A DNA stretch of 26,569 nt from Candidatus Taylorbacteria bacterium RIFCSPLOWO2_01_FULL_45_34b (GTDB taxonomy: Bacteria; Patescibacteriota; Minisyncoccia; Phycocordibacterales; DSPV01), in the NCBI GenBank assembly GCA_001822675.1, contig MHRY01000044.1, positions 1-26,569 on the forward strand, read 5' to 3'. The notes below the pieces were generated by a model. The model saw only the letters and a program-made list of their open reading frames with translations. It searched no databases and was not told the DNA's origin. The translations under genes and the position numbers were made by a program. Position 1 is the stretch's first letter. Each line of letters begins with the position of its first letter. Of the stretch, positions 767 through 26,448 are shown piece after piece.

Positions 767-792
767 AGCTACTGAAAAGGTTATTACAAATT

Positions 793-809
793 CCAAGGTT
801 CAACCTTGG
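793..809. repeat. REP-like palindrome CCAAGGTTCAACCTTGG
   Basis: Perfect 8-bp arms. Belongs to the AGGT-N-ACCT palindrome family also seen flanking the RAYT gene. Confidence 0.7.
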
Positions 810-813
810 AATG

Positions 814-3866: not shown

Positions 3867-3897
3867 ACTTTTTTCCTTTCTGGTATTTCTGAATTGG

Positions 3898-3912
3898 CTA
3901 GGTTGAACCTCG
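3898..3912. repeat. REP-like palindrome (aggttgaacct core)
   Basis: ctaGGTTGAACCtcg. The same core occurs at 4405-4417 with shared flank ccatcttt. Confidence 0.55.
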
Positions 3913-3988
3913 CCATCTTTTCTTTTTGCTGACTGACTTTCTCCAAAACAAATTGTCAAAGTTCCAACTCTGACAGAACAAAGCCCAT

Positions 3989-4005
3989 ACAAGGTTCGAC
4001 CTTGT
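3989..4005. repeat. REP-like palindrome ACAAGGTTCGACCTTGT
   Basis: 7-bp stem with a TCG loop. Same family as the hairpins flanking the RAYT gene. Confidence 0.7.
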
Positions 4006-4209
4006 AGTAAGACTAACTGAATCTACGAAAAGGTTAGCACGGTTTTATATAAAAGTCAATGGATTGGTTTATACCAAAAAACGCTTCTGTAGAGCCACTT
4101 TTATCCAGCCTAGTTTTTTGGTGATTCTGTTCATAACCCGCGTATTTCTCGCCGCACCATATGGCCCAATTTAACAAACCAATATAAAAAGTTTATCGAG
4201 GACTTATTT

Positions 4210-4226
4210 CCAAGGACTAACCTTGG
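4210..4226. repeat. REP-like palindrome CCAAGGACTAACCTTGG
   Basis: 6-bp arms with a 5-nt loop. A second copy lies at 4373-4388. Confidence 0.6.
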
Positions 4227-4250
4227 GTTTTACTTTGAAAGTGTTAGGTT

Positions 4251-4273
4251 ATGTCAAGGTTTAACCTTGACAT
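4251..4273. repeat. REP-like 23-bp palindrome ATGTCAAGGTTTAACCTTGACAT
   Basis: 11-bp perfect arms. Exact reverse-complement copy at 15474-15496. Confidence 0.75.
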
Positions 4274-4312
4274 ACTTTGTCATTTCCAGACACTTAATTT
4301 AGAGTTGTATTT

Positions 4313-4372: not shown

Positions 4373-4388
4373 CAAGGACTAACCTTGG
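4373..4388. repeat. REP-like palindrome CAAGGACTAACCTTGG
   Basis: Copy of the 4210 element. Preceded by the direct repeat acaaggact(t6)acaaggact. Confidence 0.55.
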
Positions 4389-4404
4389 ATTTTTGTAAAA
4401 TGGC

Positions 4405-4417
4405 GAGGTTGAACCTC
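4405..4417. repeat. REP-like palindrome GAGGTTGAACCTC
   Basis: 6-bp arms. The right flank catcatctttcc matches the flank of the 3898 copy. Confidence 0.55.
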
Positions 4418-4492
4418 ATCATCTTTCCGTGTTGTTTTATGTTTAAAAAGAAAGCCAACCGGATGGGTTGGCTTTCGGGCGAAGGGAAGAAC

Positions 4493-4924: not shown

Positions 4925-4962
4925 ATACATCTAATTTACGCGGTCGCGTAAATTAGATGTAT
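4925..4962. promoter_or_regulatory. Perfect 18+18 bp inverted repeat (2-bp spacer), candidate operator or hairpin upstream of the response-regulator gene
   Basis: atacatctaatttacgcg-gt-cgcgtaaattagatgtat. Lies 64-101 bp upstream of the RR start and abuts a TTGACA-like hexamer on the minus strand. Confidence 0.5.
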
Positions 4963-6832: not shown

Positions 6833-7270
6833 GCGGAGAATATGATAGCATGTTTTCTTGTCATGCCAGCTACAACTTTTTCGATTTGAAAAGTCGCAGC
6901 CCCCGCCTCCTTACGCTTCGCTCCAGTCCGGCTCGGACATTGTGAAAAAGTATTGTCGTCACGAGTTACTAAGTATTTTGCTTCGACAACTCGCAAAATA
7001 CTAAGTGCTCGCGACCCCGCCTTGCCCGTTTTTGTTGGTACAAAAACATGGCTGCGGCTCGGACAAGATAGAAAAGTCTCAAGCAGTTGAGATTTTTCTA
7101 TCTTGTCCGCCCACCTGGATTCGGCCGCGACTCAAACCTCGCCGCCGCTCGGTTTGGTCTGGCCACCGCCTCGCGATTTTTGCTACTGCAAAAATATCGC
7201 TCCGGCGTTCGAATCCAGACACCCCGCAAGCAGTTGCGGGGTTGTGGGCGGCCAATATTCAGAAATATTG

Positions 7271-7342
7271 TCCGCCCACCTGGATTCGAACCAGGGACCT
7301 TACGCTTAAGAGGCGTTTGCTCTACCAACTGAGCTATGGGCG
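7271..7342 (-). tRNA. tRNA-Lys (anticodon CTT)
   Basis: Minus-strand read CCGCCCA-TA-GCTC-AGTTGGTA-GAGC-A-AACGC-CTCTTAA-GCGTA-AGGTC-CCTGG-TTCGAAT-CCAGG-TGGGCGG-A. Canonical cloverleaf. CCA is not encoded. Confidence 0.85.
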
Positions 7343-7451
7343 GAATTCTTATGTAGCCCATAGAGAAGTCCTAACTGCTTGCCCCGTAGTGAGCTTGCTC
7401 TACTACTGGGGAGCTATGGGCGGATTTGGAAAGTGTAAGATGAAAAATACA

Positions 7452-10703: not shown

Positions 10704-10734
10704 AGGATTTTTACTTATGGTTTACAAAGTAACT

Positions 10735-10751
10735 ACGAGGTCGAACCTCGT
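10735..10751. repeat. REP hairpin ACGAGGTCGAACCTCGT (outer, left of the RAYT element)
   Basis: 7-bp stem with a CGA loop. Confidence 0.7.
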
Positions 10752-10772
10752 CACCTATTTTTTGTGTTATAA

Positions 10773-10811
10773 TTATACCATAAAAAATCTCTCTACAAGG
10801 TTCGACCTCGT
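10773..10811 (+). repeat. Left flank module of the RAYT gene: 15-nt direct repeat ATTATACCATAAAAA + 7 nt + REP hairpin ACAAGGTTCGACCTCGT
   Basis: The same module (attataccataaaaa-N7-cgaggtcgaacctcg) recurs at 11478-11515 on the other side of the gene, in the same orientation. Confidence 0.75.
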
Positions 10812-11467
10812 TTTTCGTTGTAATGAAGCCAATCCCGTATTGTTGTCTCAAAATCTGCCACCGTTTCAAAATATCCTGGGAAAGCCTTGCGTTCAAGAAT
10901 AACTTTTTCCGGCCTGTCCACTAAAAGAAAGTCCTGATAACTTGAGTAGGAGTAGTTTTTAAGGAAGGAAAGGGCCTTCTTTTTATTCACGATGCCCGTT
11001 TCTTTCCACGTAGATTCAATCAGTTTGATTGGGTTTAGGTGGATATACGAAAATAAATATTTCATGTATTCGTCATTATCTGCGTATTCAGCTTTAAATT
11101 TTCCTTGGAAAAGTGCTCCCGTGCGTTCCTCTTTTGTATTAAAATACATAGTATAGGCTGTGGAGAGTTTTTGCATAAATTTACTGATTCCGCCTTCCAT
11201 TTTCTCCCGTACAAGAAGGTGGAAATGATTTGGCATACAACAGTATGTTCCTATATCAATAATAGTTTTTTCTCGGTCTTGGCCGAGCATAGAATTGAGT
11301 GACCAATCAGAGTTGGTAATATGAACCGGGTTTGTACTATTGCACATATAAAGAAGTCCGATAAAACGTTTGTAATCACGATCAGCATTAAAAATTTTTC
11401 TTTTGTCCGTGCCTCTGTTATAGACATGGTAGTATCCATCTATAGAGATTTCAATATTTCTGGTCAT
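10793..11467 (-). CDS. REP-associated tyrosine transposase (RAYT; IS200-like Y1 HUH transposase family)
   Basis: 224 aa. YHVYNRG ... CMPNHFHLLV (HuH) ... GALFQGKFKA ... YIHLNPIK ... YSYSSYQDF (catalytic Tyr region). The motif order and spacing match the RAYT/TnpA_REP branch rather than the short IS200 TnpA. Flanked on both sides by REP hairpins. Confidence 0.85.
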   Translation of the reverse strand: MTRNIEISIDGYYHVYNRGTDKRKIFNADRDYKRFIGLLYMCNSTNPVHITNSDWSLNSMLGQDREKTIIDIGTYCCMPNHFHLLVREKMEGGISKFMQKLSTAYTMYFNTKEERTGALFQGKFKAEYADNDEYMKYLFSYIHLNPIKLIESTWKETGIVNKKKALSFLKNYSYSSYQDFLLVDRPEKVILERKAFPGYFETVADFETTIRDWLHYNEKRGRTL

Positions 11468-11477
11468 GTGAGAAAAT

Positions 11478-11515
11478 ATTATACCATAAAAAGTGTGTTT
11501 CGAGGTCGAACCTCG
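11478..11515 (+). repeat. Right flank module of the RAYT gene (direct repeat + REP hairpin CGAGGTCGAACCTCG)
   Basis: attataccataaaaag-tgtgttt-cgaggtcgaacctcg. Read on the minus strand, the direct repeat gives TGGTATAAT, an extended -10, 10 nt upstream of the RAYT ATG. Confidence 0.75.
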
Positions 11516-12007
11516 TAATTGGCGGGTTTATGTTCTGGTGCAAATACAACCTGTACCCTAGACTATGAACGATAGTGTTTCTGCTACTGCCACCTTCACC
11601 AAACAGATAACCTACCACACTCTTACTATCACAAAGACCGCTTACAGTGGCTCAAGGGGCACCATTACCTCGTCACTTTCTAGAATCTCTTGTGGTTCCC
11701 CTTGCTCTGCTTCCTTTGTATCATTGGAGCCTCACAAAAGTACCATTAAGCCTCCTTACCGTAAATTCCACCGTTACCCTTACCGCTACGGCACAGCTGA
11801 TTATGGCAACACCTTCGCAGGTTGGAGCAATGTCCTGACTATGCAGGCAATCAATGTATCGTTACTATGACTGGAGCTAAGTAGTGTGGGGGTGGCGTTT
11901 TTGAGGTAGGGGGAATGTTGTACTTGTCATTATTAATACCCGTAGCTCTGCTACGGGGAATTGACTTGATTGCAATTTTTCGATGTTTTGGTATAGTGGT
12001 TTCCACT

Positions 12008-12304
12008 ATGAAATCCGATATACACCCAAAATACTTTGGAGAAGCAAAAGCTACCTGCGCCTGCGGGGTGGTGTATAGTGTTGGCTCAACAAAAGAAAAG
12101 ATGGAAATTGAAATCTGCCGTTCCTGCCACCCGTTTTACAGCGGCGCCGAAAAAATTATAGATACCGCCGGCCGCGTCGAGAAATTCAAGGCTCGGGCTG
12201 CGAAAAAAGTCGTCACTCCTCCTAAAAAGAAAGAAACCAAAGTTGAAGTTCCTAAAAAAACTCCAAAGAAAGCGGCAGAAAAACCAGCAGAAATCAAAGC
12301 GTAA
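12008..12304 (+). CDS. rpmE: 50S ribosomal protein L31 (zinc-ribbon type) with a Lys/Pro-rich C-terminal tail
   Basis: MKSDIHPKY...CACG...CRSCHPFYSG from the ATG at 12008. The 5' extension to 11915 is non-homologous. Confidence 0.9.
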   Translation: MKSDIHPKYFGEAKATCACGVVYSVGSTKEKMEIEICRSCHPFYSGAEKIIDTAGRVEKFKARAAKKVVTPPKKKETKVEVPKKTPKKAAEKPAEIKA

Positions 12305-15473: not shown

Positions 15474-15496
15474 ATGTCAAGGTTAAACCTTGACAT
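15474..15496. repeat. REP-like 23-bp palindrome ATGTCAAGGTTAAACCTTGACAT
   Basis: Exact reverse complement of the copy at 4251-4273. Confidence 0.75.
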
Positions 15497-16572: not shown

Positions 16573-18531
16573 ATGAAAATTTCTCACAACTGGCTGCAAG
16601 ATTATTTTGATAAGGAATTACCCTCACCGGAAAAATTGGCAGAGCTTTTGAACGCGCACGTTTTTGAAGTTGAGGGCTTGGATAAAGTACACGAAGACAC
16701 AATTCTCGATGTAAAAGTGCTTCCAGACAGAGCTCATTACGCCCTGTCTCATTTTGGTATCGCCTATGAAGTTTCCGCTATCACTGGAATTCCGTTAAAA
16801 AAGGAAAGAGATTTAACTGTTACATTAGGGAAGCAGACTGCGCCGAAAGTCACAGTTGAGGACGAAAAAGTATGCCGCCGATACATGGCGCGGGTTGTCG
16901 AAGGAATCGGTAAAGCCGAAACACCGAAAATTATAAAGGAAAGACTTGCCGCTATCGGCCAACGTTCGATCAATCCAATTGTTGATCTTGCAAACTACAC
17001 GATGTTTGATGTCGGCCAGCCGCTTCACGCCTTTGATGCGGATAAAGTAAAAGGAGGAATCACAGTACGAAAAGCGAAAGCGGGTGAGAAAATTACCACG
17101 CTTGATAATAAGGACGTTGCTCTTTCCGCGGACATTTTGGTTATCGCGGATGATGTGGGCCCGCTTGCCATCGCGGGCATCAAGGGCGGCAAGCGGGCCG
17201 AAGTGGATTCAAACACAAAACGAATTATTTTAGAATCTGCCACGTTTGATCCAGTTTTGATTAGGAAAACGGCGACTGCTTTAAACATCAAAACCGATGC
17301 TTCAAAGCGGTTTGAAAATAACATGCCGCCAGCCGGCGCGTTTCTTGGCATACTGCATTTTTCAAAGCGACTGGAAGATATTTTTGGCGACTCGATTTCT
17401 TTTAGCCCCTTCACTGATATATATCCTGTTCACACGGAAGATAGAACCATAGAGATAGATCTTGATTTTATTCACGCCAAACTCGGGGCAAAAGTGTCGG
17501 AAAAAGAAGTGATTGAAATTCTTGGGCGACTTTATCTTAAAGCAGAAAATAAGAAGGGTAGGTTAGTTGTTACTGTTCCAGCATGGCGTCAGGATGTTGT
17601 CATTCCTGAGGATGCTGTCGAAGAAGTTGGACGGCTGTACGGCTATGAAAAAATAAAGCCAATCGTGCCGCCGAAAGTAAAAGGGGATTTGCCTCTTAAC
17701 AAAAATTTCTACTACGCGAACAAAATCAAACTCATTTTGGCAAACCACGGCTTTTCAGAAATTTACACTTCAACCTTTGATAAAGTGGGTGAGCGGGAAG
17801 TACTCTATCCTGTGGCGTCAGATAAAAATTTTTTGCGGACGGAATTGACAAAGTCAATGGCGAAGGCACTCGAGTTCAATCTTCGAAATACCGACCTCCT
17901 TAATCTCAATCAAATCAAGCTTTTTGAAATTGGTAAAATTTTCAAAGATGGGAAGGAGATTAATTCTTTAGTTGTTGGTATTACAAACACCAAAAGTATT
18001 AAAACTAAAGTAAATGATTTAATTCGAGATGCGCGTGAAATGCTCATAAAAGAGTTAGGAGCCGATGTTCAAACGGTTTGCACTATTGATGACAGTGGGG
18101 GACTGCTTCTTCTTGGAGGCCAGCAAATTGGTACCATAAATGCCATCGATGGGGTTATGGAAGTGAATCTTGACCTGTTTATTGCTTCTCTGCCCGATCC
18201 GAAAGGCTCAACCTTACAGACTGTAAGGTTGAGCCTTTCGAGTCTTGTTTACAGACCGTTTTCAAAGTACCCATTTATCGTTCGAGATGTTGCTATCTTT
18301 GTGCCGGAAAGTACAAAAGTGGTTGAAGTTCTTGCGGTAATCAAAAAAGAAACCAGTACGTTACTTGTAAATGATTATCTGTTCGACGAATTCAAAAAAG
18401 GTGACAAAATTTCTTACGCCTTCCGCCTCGTCTTTCAATCTTTCGAAAAAACACTGACCGATGATGAGGTGAATAGGATTATGAAAAAAGTAGCCGCGGC
18501 AGTCACAGCAATGGGATGGCAGGTGAGATAA
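16573..18531 (+). CDS. pheT: Phenylalanine--tRNA ligase beta subunit (short, ~650 aa)
   Basis: MKISHNWLQDYF start. B3/B4 and B5 domain-like regions and a C-terminal anticodon-binding-like FDEFKKGDKISYAFRLVFQ. Start lies 2 nt after the pheS stop. Confidence 0.88.
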   Translation: MKISHNWLQDYFDKELPSPEKLAELLNAHVFEVEGLDKVHEDTILDVKVLPDRAHYALSHFGIAYEVSAITGIPLKKERDLTVTLGKQTAPKVTVEDEKVCRRYMARVVEGIGKAETPKIIKERLAAIGQRSINPIVDLANYTMFDVGQPLHAFDADKVKGGITVRKAKAGEKITTLDNKDVALSADILVIADDVGPLAIAGIKGGKRAEVDSNTKRIILESATFDPVLIRKTATALNIKTDASKRFENNMPPAGAFLGILHFSKRLEDIFGDSISFSPFTDIYPVHTEDRTIEIDLDFIHAKLGAKVSEKEVIEILGRLYLKAENKKGRLVVTVPAWRQDVVIPEDAVEEVGRLYGYEKIKPIVPPKVKGDLPLNKNFYYANKIKLILANHGFSEIYTSTFDKVGEREVLYPVASDKNFLRTELTKSMAKALEFNLRNTDLLNLNQIKLFEIGKIFKDGKEINSLVVGITNTKSIKTKVNDLIRDAREMLIKELGADVQTVCTIDDSGGLLLLGGQQIGTINAIDGVMEVNLDLFIASLPDPKGSTLQTVRLSLSSLVYRPFSKYPFIVRDVAIFVPESTKVVEVLAVIKKETSTLLVNDYLFDEFKKGDKISYAFRLVFQSFEKTLTDDEVNRIMKKVAAAVTAMGWQVR

Positions 18532-18533
18532 AC

Positions 18534-18558
18534 AGAGCCGACTCTAGGAGTCGGCTCT
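18534..18558 (+). terminator. Strong hairpin after pheT (agagccgactc-tag-gagtcggctct)
   Basis: 11-bp perfect stem. No clean U-tract follows. Confidence 0.45.
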
Positions 18559-21247: not shown

Positions 21248-21642
21248 GGGTGACCTTTCGAAGTTAGGCAAACTCTGGGATGAAGGGGAGATCTTTGCTG
21301 TCGATTCCCATGACTTGGGAAGCCGTGAAAGCTTGACCTCCCCCAAGCGCTTTGAGAGTTGTTTCTTTCGTGTGGTGTCCCTAGAGGACAAGGTACTCCG
21401 GATGTTTTGGGTGCTGACTTACCTCGGTCATAAGGTTGGTGGCAAACTTTCCCACTTCTGTTTGGTGCCATGTCCGACCTTTTCGGTGGAGAACGGTCAT
21501 TTTCAGTTCGTGGCGGTTCTTTTCGATCTGCATTCGCATCAAGTTCGTGGATTTTTTCTGGGTTTCTTGGTTTTGGTAGCCTCAACAGGCTGTTTCTTCT
21601 GAAGAAAGGCTAACATGAATATAAAGGTATATCAAGTAGAAT

Positions 21643-21676
21643 GAACCCCCGCTTCGCGAACGCGAAGCGGGGGTTC
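21643..21676 (+). terminator. Perfect 16-bp-stem palindromic terminator
   Basis: gaacccccgcttcgcg-aa-cgcgaagcgggggttc followed by atctttctttt. Lies between convergent transcription units. Confidence 0.7.
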
Positions 21677-21728
21677 ATCTTTCTTTTATACTTTATACTA
21701 ATACTTGATACGCTATACGTTCCTTGGT

Positions 21729-26412: not shown

Positions 26413-26448
26413 AAAATCCCCGCCGTCCTTTCGGACGGCGGGGATTTG
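26413..26448 (+). terminator. Intrinsic-terminator-like hairpin after the surface-protein gene
   Basis: aaaatccccgccgtcc-tttc-ggacggcggggatttg, a 13-bp GC-rich stem. Confidence 0.6.

Follow-up and report, generated by a model that had tools for sequence, protein, structure and literature searches.

A probable REP/RAYT-like unit of a single-copy Y1 HUH enzyme and cognate DNA hairpins in Candidate Phyla Radiation bacteria

Introduction

Systems that pair repetitive extragenic palindromes (REPs) with a REP-associated tyrosine transposase (RAYT) have been characterized almost entirely in Proteobacteria (E. coli, Pseudomonas). Here, we describe a related arrangement in a 26,569-nt stretch of DNA (contig MHRY01000044.1 of assembly GCA_001822675.1; hereafter the window) from a Candidatus Taylorbacteria population of the Candidate Phyla Radiation (CPR/Patescibacteria), sampled from groundwater of the Rifle aquifer. 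The window carries a gene for a Y1 HUH tyrosine recombinase/transposase-like protein that is bracketed by short DNA hairpins, relatives of which are dispersed between other genes. An earlier note, made from the letters of the window, had read gene and hairpins as a REP-RAYT system. We consider it likely that they form a REPtron-like unit, that is, a single-copy, probably domesticated class-2 Y1 HUH enzyme with cognate DNA hairpins.

Among described enzymes of this kind, subclass 2.1 of Quentin et al. (2018) is defined by the motifs NH[YF]H, FQ or W[EQ], Y[IV]HLNP or YIELNP, and an SS tail, with a median length of 238 amino acids (PMC6006769, Table 1). It corresponds to RAYT Group 1 of Bertels et al. 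(2017; PMC5581495) and to the 'TIRYT' proteins of Di Nocera et al. (2013; PMC3733652). REPs that lie in frame within the tnpA-REP gene itself have been described as unique to another subclass, 2.4 (PMC6006769). REPs can also be targets of mobile elements: ISPpu9 is an example of a REP-targeting insertion sequence (IS) in Proteobacteria (PMC8450116). In the literature that we searched, we found no published link between RAYT/REP systems and CPR/Patescibacteria, although one may exist elsewhere.

Results

The Y1 HUH protein

The gene (10793..11467, minus strand) encodes 224 amino acids with the HUH motif H81-F-H83, a putative catalytic tyrosine (Tyr141) in YIHLNP, and a YSSY tail. The motifs quoted in the earlier note are present in an intact open reading frame (ORF), which matches Pfam Y1_Tnp (PF01797, 'Transposase IS200 like') with 39.9 bits against a cut-off of 23. 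We found no other Pfam domain in the protein at E <= 0.1, including no DnaA_C/HTH-like (helix-turn-helix) C-terminal domain. In a full-length alignment of 25 homologues, Y13, H14, N17, R18, G19, H81, H83, Y141, N145, P146, S175 and S176 are invariant, and the HUH and Y motifs align with those of E. coli RayT. The tyrosine motif (Y141-I-H-L-N-P) has the class-2 form Y---NP rather than the Y---Q of IS200.

Motif set, length and pairwise identity fit a subclass 2.1 or RAYT Group 1-like protein: full-length identity is 29-31% to Skermanella and Pseudomonas 'transposases' (HV.QRG / NH[FV]H / Y[IV]E.NP / WSSY) and 18% to E. coli RayT. Judged by sequence, the protein is not an orthologue of the latter, since its score against the RayT equivalog NCBIfam NF047646 (REP_Tyr_transpos) is 39.4 bits, below the cut-off of 80. 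The AlphaFold model (pLDDT 85.6) has a helical tail, and the best match of a fold search in the PDB was 4er8, E. coli TnpA-REP with a REP hairpin (E 1.7e-4, TM 0.64 on target); the TnpA structures of IS608, ISDra2 and Sulfolobus ranked after it with TM ~0.5. Searched by sequence, the PDB returned no match to the single protein and one weak match, to ISDra2, with a profile (E 0.07). Between helix A and strand 2, the protein carries a CPR-specific insert of ~22 amino acids that its proteobacterial relatives lack. A word-indexed search found more than 7,899 relatives, and at E <= 1e-30 the family comprises 1,087 clusters of 50% identity.

Hairpins and promoter at the locus

The gene is bracketed by near-identical hairpins of the form (C/A)GAGGT-N3-ACCTCG. 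The upstream hairpin, CGAGGT-CGA-ACCTCG (11501..11515), lies 33 nt before the ATG and directly upstream of the promoter -10 element. The downstream hairpin, ACAAGGT-TCG-ACCTCGT with one A.C mismatch (10795..10811), overlaps the last codons and the stop, which read ..RGRTL*. Further out lies an outer hairpin, ACGAGGT-CGA-ACCTCGT (10735..10751), that matches the upstream one in 16 of 16 positions (CGAGGTCGAACCTCGT at 10736-10751 and 11501-11516); at the downstream hairpin, 10796-10811 reads as a related hybrid copy, CAAGGTTCGACCTCGT. In addition, a 15-mer, ATTATACCATAAAAA, recurs as a direct repeat at 10772-10786 and 11478-11492 (15/15 identical). On the left flank, these elements stand head-to-head in the order hairpin, T-run and TGTTATAAT, then ATTATACCA, A-run and hairpin. 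They make up a REPIN-like inverted doublet (10735..10811) in which TGTTATAAT and TGGTATAAT lie back-to-back between the two hairpins, with the palindrome centered at 10772/10773. As a single strand, the doublet is predicted to fold into one 77-nt hairpin (-19 and -22.1 kcal/mol on the two strands; z -6.8 and -7.7). A 43-nt inverted repeat (10731-10773 / 11478-11520, 74%) provides a further bracket around the gene.

Read on the other strand, the 15-mer proves to be the extended -10 promoter of the gene itself (TGGTATAAT, 10 nt upstream of the ATG). On the gene strand, its right-hand copy (11478..11492, minus strand) reads TTTTTATGGTATAAT, a T-run and then an extended -10 element that fits TGnTATAAT perfectly. 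The L31 gene has a like layout, with TGGTATAGT 10 nt before its ATG at 12008, and a TATAAT-like box stands 5-12 nt before the ATG in most homologous loci. Because the -10 element ends 10 nt before the ATG, the Y1 mRNA is predicted to be near-leaderless. The earlier note had described two same-orientation modules, each a 15-mer and a hairpin separated by 7 nt, plus an outer hairpin. The repeats are real, but the spacer is 8 nt, and the promoter reading, together with the layout at L31 and at homologous loci, identifies the right-hand module as a near-leaderless promoter with a hairpin upstream. The abutting position of this hairpin suggests self-regulation. The 43-nt inverted repeat and the head-to-head doublet are additions to the earlier note, as is an in-frame doublet in pheT described below.

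Between the upstream hairpin and the L31 start (11520-12007, ~490 nt), we observed only a 101-amino-acid ORF (11565-11870) that has no Pfam match and is called by some gene callers and skipped by others. The ORF and the outer hairpin region have the 10-mer ACCTCGTCAC in common.

Genomic context and copy number

The Y1 gene opposes a long plus-strand run of housekeeping genes (L25 and SLT-like, then L31, RF1, S2, EF-Ts, PheS/T and GyrB). Its neighbors are the SLT-like and L31 genes, and no tnpB lies beside it. The exact protein is annotated in GCA_001820855.1 and occurs on contigs from many samples, and we read 23 of these contigs; L31 / Y1 / SLT is the neighborhood common to all places shown or collapsed for it. 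Ten gene-carrying contigs are 99.1-100% identical to the window and differ from it only around tRNA-Lys, so that a strain comparison among them for hairpin presence or absence was uninformative. In a collection of 5.8 billion proteins, the next match after it reaches only 63% identity. The single locus on every contig that we read and this distance to the next protein argue that the gene is no multicopy IS in this population. Within these contigs, they agree with the single copy that the earlier note had proposed to check; divergent Y1 paralogues in the same genome may still exist.

These data bear on the simplest alternative, an ordinary autonomous insertion sequence of the IS200/IS605 family in which a tnpA gene lies between subterminal left- and right-end hairpins. 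The Pfam match points that way, many homologues lie on very short metagenome contigs, and the outer-left and right hairpins, identical in 16 of 16 positions and in direct orientation, resemble IS608 ends on one strand. However, the protein has Y---NP instead of Y---Q and, with its conserved C-terminal tail, 224 amino acids instead of ~150; tnpB is missing, a single locus was found, and the best structural match of the model is TnpA-REP. Moreover, these hairpins are also present where the gene is not, both between genes and in frame within pheT. We therefore regard this alternative as highly improbable, in agreement with the earlier note, which had read the protein as a REP-associated tyrosine transposase.

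A more distant Y1 protein, 55% identical, is encoded at locus L132 (C687J35174_10166463, Rifle sample 3300002502) and flanked by ATGTCAAGGT-N3-ACCTTGACAT hairpins. The same sample contains the window's organism; the gene may be a paralogue from its genome or may come from a different CPR bacterium.

Dispersed hairpins in the window and adjacent DNA

The core of the flanking hairpins, AGGTNNNACCT (AGGT-N3-ACCT), has nine matches in the window (796, 3900, 3992, 4257, 4406, 10738, 10798, 11503 and 15480), against 0.19 expected and a maximum of two in 100 shuffles. Six of these lie apart from the gene, each in intergenic DNA: ATTCCAAGGT-TCA-ACCTTGGAAT (790..812) lies 24 nt past the hicA stop; the imperfect GGCTAGGT-TGA-ACCTCGCC (3896..3914) lies upstream of a Band_7 gene, followed by TACAAGGT-TCG-ACCTTGTA (3988..4006) and TATGTCAAGGT-TTA-ACCTTGACATA (4250..4274); the imperfect GGCGAGGT-TGA-ACCTCATC (4402..4420) is the closest to the flank type among the dispersed copies; and ATGTCAAGGT-TAA-ACCTTGACAT (15474..15496) precedes tRNA-Thr. 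Three further intergenic sites that the earlier note had assigned to the same AGGT/ACCT core lack AGGT-N3-ACCT, namely CCAAGG-ACTAA-CCTTGG (4210..4226, of the AAGG-N5-CCTT type), CACCTTGGA-N9-TCCAAGGTG (4313) and (A)CAAGG-ACTAA-CCTTG(G) (4373..4389, of the same type as 4210). The shared core thus holds for part of that list, and the intergenic position for all of it.

One copy lies inside a gene. In pheT (16573..18531), an inverted doublet of AAGG-N5-CCTT hairpins, AAGGCTCAACCTT..AAGGTTGAGCCTT (18200..18240), forms a perfect 19-bp stem and is read in frame as KGSTLQTVRLSLS in the inter-domain linker before the FDX-ACB domain. We covered ~36 kb of this genome, that is, the window and 9.4 kb gained leftward, and the added DNA contains one further inverted doublet just upstream of gyrA. 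On the right, all contigs stop ~230 nt past the end of the window. Altogether, these ~36 kb hold about 10 further sites of the hairpin family, none of which has the exact flank arms.

Two other origins of the hairpins were considered and rejected. A tRNA or Rfam origin was set aside because only three tRNAs were found, none at a hairpin site. A terminator origin was set aside because the terminator scan flagged one of the three flank hairpins and most dispersed copies have no T-run after them. The window also contains long perfect intergenic hairpins unrelated to the family that are likely terminators (4925-4962, 17-bp stem; 18534-18558, 11-bp; 21641-21678, 17-bp).

Hairpins at related Y1 loci

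A scan of species-representative genomes gave 591 relatives, and we examined the best 80 loci. All 80 are Patescibacteria (Taylor-, Nomura-, Adler-, Kaiser-, Yonath-, Campbell-, Zambryski-, Vogel-, Ryanbacteria and others). Seventy-six loci had enough flanking DNA for counts of G+C-containing hairpins, and 68 of them have such hairpins both before and after the gene. The 5-nt arm beside the loop and the loop length agree between the two sides in 59 of the 76. The median gap from hairpin to ATG is 27.5 nt, and the downstream hairpin starts at a median of 1 nt past the stop, often overlapping the last codons. The core common to the family is AAGG-N5-CCTT, most often AAGGT-N3-ACCTT; other forms are AAGGC..GCCTT, AAGGA..TCCTT, AAGGG..CCCTT, ATAGG..CCTAT, AAGAC..GTCTT and GAAGT..ACTTC. 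Around this core, extended stems of up to ~20 bp are genome-specific and the same on the two sides of the gene, with flank specificity reaching over 15-40 nt. Three loci (L011, L051, L067) contain a second, divergent Y1 gene with its own hairpin type on both sides.

A third hairpin lies inside the gene, at nt 158-179 and in a constant frame, in 46 of 81 loci (L014-L088). Its position corresponds to a surface loop of the AlphaFold model, within the ~22-amino-acid insert. Its sequence tracks the flank type of the genome, and the encoded peptides vary accordingly (QGSTL, QGRTL, EGRSF, QGLPL, GGEAS, PIGLPY and others). Because the internal hairpin co-varies with the flanks, the DNA palindrome dictates the peptide and not the reverse. 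The window's own gene is without an internal copy.

The position of the gene is variable across the family and differs in most loci. Shared positions exist: it lies between S2 and RF1 in L069, L078 and L085, and between L31 and SLT in the window and L046. In the latter pair, the Y1/SLT junction is shared and the hairpins have diverged, which suggests that gene and hairpins evolve together in place.

This layout also bears on the notion that the hairpins are general regulatory or structural elements (terminators, mRNA stabilizers or operators for dimeric proteins) with no DNA-processing link to the Y1 protein. Hairpins between genes, one of them abutting a promoter and one flagged by the terminator scan, would be expected of such elements, and most cores are near-perfect double-stranded palindromes around a single central base, with free loop orientation. 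Most copies, however, have no T-run after them; a general element would not explain matching hairpins on both sides of 59 of 76 Y1 genes with a co-varying copy within the coding sequence, nor in-frame copies inside unrelated genes, nor genome-specific stems with compensatory change. We consider this explanation very unlikely.

We searched the same loci for known sequence signatures. GGGGWSAS occurs in 12 of 81 loci, which is chance level, and is absent from the flanks in the window. A DnaA-box consensus, TTATCCACA, was found 64 times in ~1 Mb of related loci against 7.7 expected, and not in the window. Often it forms a hairpin-(G)AGTTATCCACAG unit immediately behind the Y1 gene on the 3' side, and dispersed hairpins have it too (for example, L034 10716, L036 10717, L054 10725, L062 10723, L077 10698 and 11703, and L064 398/1063/1859). 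Several related loci have a conserved GAGTTATCCACACATATACTTTGCAGG ~4 kb upstream, again with none in the window. We rejected a link to oriC, given the absence of TTATCCACA from the window and neighbors in L054 that are large surface proteins and not dnaA.

Dispersal in related genomes and metagenomes

Because a strict 'same arm' search (perfect stems >=6 bp) returned few dispersed copies, we added counts based on the core. AGGT-N3-ACCT has 203 sites in 983 kb of related loci, or ~5.5 per 26.5 kb, whereas a mononucleotide shuffle yields ~0.15 per 10 kb. Away from the gene, the density of the cognate type (7-nt arms) is 0.21 per 10 kb in its own locus and 0.016 in other loci, a 13-fold enrichment. 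At far sites selected by AGG-N5-CCT alone, the next outer position pairs in 61% and the following five positions in 41-47%, compared with 25-30% for control seeds. Of the far sites, 52% fall in the 17% of the sequence that lies outside long ORFs. Many dispersed sites are inverted doublets with 8-14-nt spacers, and some lie in frame in coding sequence.

The 20-nt exact variant ATGTCAAGGT-N3-ACCTTGACAT, which the window has at 4250 and 15474, occurs in at least 118 metagenome stretches with at least 114 distinct flank contexts. Among the matches listed, which do not include the window's own sites, 34 of 136 sites adjoin a Y1 ORF. ORFs make up 82% of the sequence but contain only 29% of the sites. 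The palindromes therefore extend, as the earlier note had anticipated, beyond the window to the adjacent 9.4 kb, the 80 related loci and these metagenome stretches.

Other features of the window

A second repeat family at 1-100, 1000-1100 and 2085-2170 consists of ~75-nt units with the hairpins CCCCGAGGC-N3-GCCTCGGGG and TTGGCT-CGA-AGCCAA. Its three-way alignment has a mean column identity of 75%, and it adjoins HicA and MNT/HepT toxin-antitoxin genes. Around tRNA-Lys (7270-7343), the region 7176-7343 contains several short hairpins, ATTTTTGC-tact-GCAAAAAT and ACCCCGCAA-gcag-TTGCGGGGT among them, and is the sole place where population contigs differ in length from the window; a 199-amino-acid ORF called over the tRNA is probably spurious. 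At the right end of the window, a hairpin with a 15-bp stem (26414-26447) follows the gene for an 879-amino-acid CLIPPER/PKD-like surface protein. All assemblies that we read stop ~230 nt past this gene, which suggests that a repeat just outside the window breaks them.

Discussion

The likely existence of a REPtron-like unit rests on an intact gene with conserved catalytic motifs, identical hairpin brackets, and the same layout in most homologous loci. It is supported further by the co-variation of upstream, internal and downstream hairpins, their intergenic dispersal, the higher density of the cognate type in its own genome, the presence of a single locus, and a predicted fold like that of TnpA-REP. 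The REP-RAYT reading of the earlier note is upheld by arrangement, fold and class-2 motif; it does not extend to orthology with RayT or to a GT[AG]G foot on the hairpins.

Several observations weigh against such a unit. The flanking loops are in direct orientation in 28 loci and inverted in 24, while strict single-strand recognition predicts otherwise. There is no conserved guide tetranucleotide: a GT[AG]G foot was found on 4 of 280 hairpin strands, with ~11 expected by chance. Subclass 2.1 has been reported without REP-like sequences nearby, or with terminal inverted repeats bearing GGGGWSAS (PMC6006769). Exact cognate copies are modest in number (~0.2 per 10 kb) and seen within 10-20 kb in only 10 of 52 loci; many related loci have no dispersed copy over that distance. 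AGGT-type hairpins reach a similar density at loci with Y1 flanks of a different type. In the window's genome, the CGAGGT..ACCTCG flank type has no perfect copy elsewhere in the ~36 kb, where dispersed copies are of the CAAGGT type or hybrids. Some of these may thus belong to another Y1 paralogue, and the gene for the 55%-identical protein at L132 is flanked by ATGTCAAGGT hairpins, the variant present at 4250 and 15474.

The indifference of hairpin density to flank type is also what one would expect if the Y1 gene were a cassette, mobile now or in the past, that targets palindromes already in place or has had its ends rebuilt from them. The palindromes themselves would then arise and spread not through this protein but by a different route, such as template switching or a second enzyme. 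The surroundings of the gene indeed differ between lineages, the same palindrome stands on both flanks in either orientation, as from a split or duplicated palindromic target, and REP-targeting insertion sequences such as ISPpu9 provide a precedent. On the other hand, the gene is single-copy with no close paralogue, and its orthologous position with diverged hairpins in the window and L046 argues for evolution in place. A cassette would also leave unexplained why a third, in-frame hairpin co-varies with the flanks, why each paralogue has its own hairpin type, and why the cognate type is 13-fold enriched in its own genome. We consider a cassette unlikely.

How would a REPtron-like unit work? 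E. coli TnpA-REP and IS608 TnpA, with their established biochemistry, serve as the analogy: the protein would bind its hairpin in DNA that is single-stranded, for instance on the template of the lagging strand, and would cut and rejoin DNA beside it via Tyr141 and a metal bound by HFH. Its substrates would be the hairpins immediately upstream of the near-leaderless promoter and over the stop codon, along with their single or doublet relatives in intergenic DNA and occasionally in frame. Such cutting and rejoining may spread, replace or homogenize hairpin copies, and would explain why the copies before, inside and after the gene evolve in concert, and also the doublets. The hairpin beside the -10 element, by the same analogy, may let the protein control its own expression. 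A bolder proposal is that the Paceibacteria Y1 enzyme family is domesticated and keeps rewriting a small set of AAGG-N5-CCTT hairpins, including three at its own locus (promoter, in-frame surface loop and stop codon), with concerted evolution as the footprint of its strand-transfer activity. We offer this version tentatively and hold it to be possible but doubtful.

If this rewriting did occur, it would give the large 'orphan' class RAYT Group 1 / subclass 2.1 its first cognate DNA partner. It would also mean that a REP-type system is kept in ~1 Mb genomes, implying a host-beneficial role over selfish spread. Retention in genomes of this size argues for a function. The short conserved core is a ready substrate for biochemistry, and each locus, through its co-varying triplet of hairpins, offers a natural read-out of enzyme specificity. 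For annotation, it matters that the hairpins put short in-frame peptides into genes such as pheT and may break assemblies. Together, these findings extend a related arrangement, in altered form, to many genera of ultra-small, streamlined CPR bacteria, and pair a protein class reported without a REP partner with a hairpin of another recognition logic, in which the apex is conserved and the GTAG foot is missing.

The E. coli REPtron (RayT/TnpA-REP, YafM, 4er8; subclass 2.2, RAYT Group 2) likewise comprises a single-copy Y1 HUH gene with Y---NP, cognate flanking hairpins that include an inverted pair, and intergenic dispersal at a density of comparable order. Its protein, however, has 165 amino acids, compared with 224 in the window, where an N-terminal YHVYNRG strand and a YSSY tail are present. 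The hairpins of the window lack the 5' GTAG foot and the bulge of E. coli REPs. Rather, the conserved part in the window's family is the apical core AAGG-N5-CCTT, which is common to several genera and, unlike the E. coli REPtron, not species-specific.

With subclass 2.1, the window protein shares NHFH, LFQG (a variant of the W motif), YIHLNP and YSSY, at 224 amino acids against ~238. It differs in the short cognate hairpins on its flanks and in the chance-level occurrence of GGGGWSAS. The C-terminal HTH of that subclass (Bac_DnaA_C / HTH_23 / HTH_28-like) has no Pfam match in the window protein, the fold of whose tail was not searched separately. Subclass 2.4 REPtrons of Cyanobacteria and Bacteroidetes resemble the window's family in having in-frame REPs within the tnpA-REP gene in addition to the flanks; they belong to another protein subclass, their REPs have GT[AG]G feet, and the window's own gene lacks the internal copy.

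The TnpA proteins of IS200/IS605 (IS608, ISDra2) have the Y1 HUH fold and subterminal hairpins in common with the locus, and by analogy their single-strand DNA chemistry would be expected of the window protein. That family (subclass 1.1) combines Y---Q, a core-only TnpA of ~150 amino acids, multiple copies, distinct left and right ends and often tnpB, none of which we find here. The REPINs of Bertels and Rainey are matched by the left flank and by the gyrA-upstream and pheT sites, all doublets that fold as one long hairpin, and doublets are common in the related loci as well. The units of the window's family are much shorter than REPINs (13-23 nt, with spacers of 8-14 nt), and their copy number is apparently lower. 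The kind of system is therefore known; what is new are the protein class, a GTAG-less hairpin with a cross-genus apex, the three-copy layout of the locus, and the host lineage.

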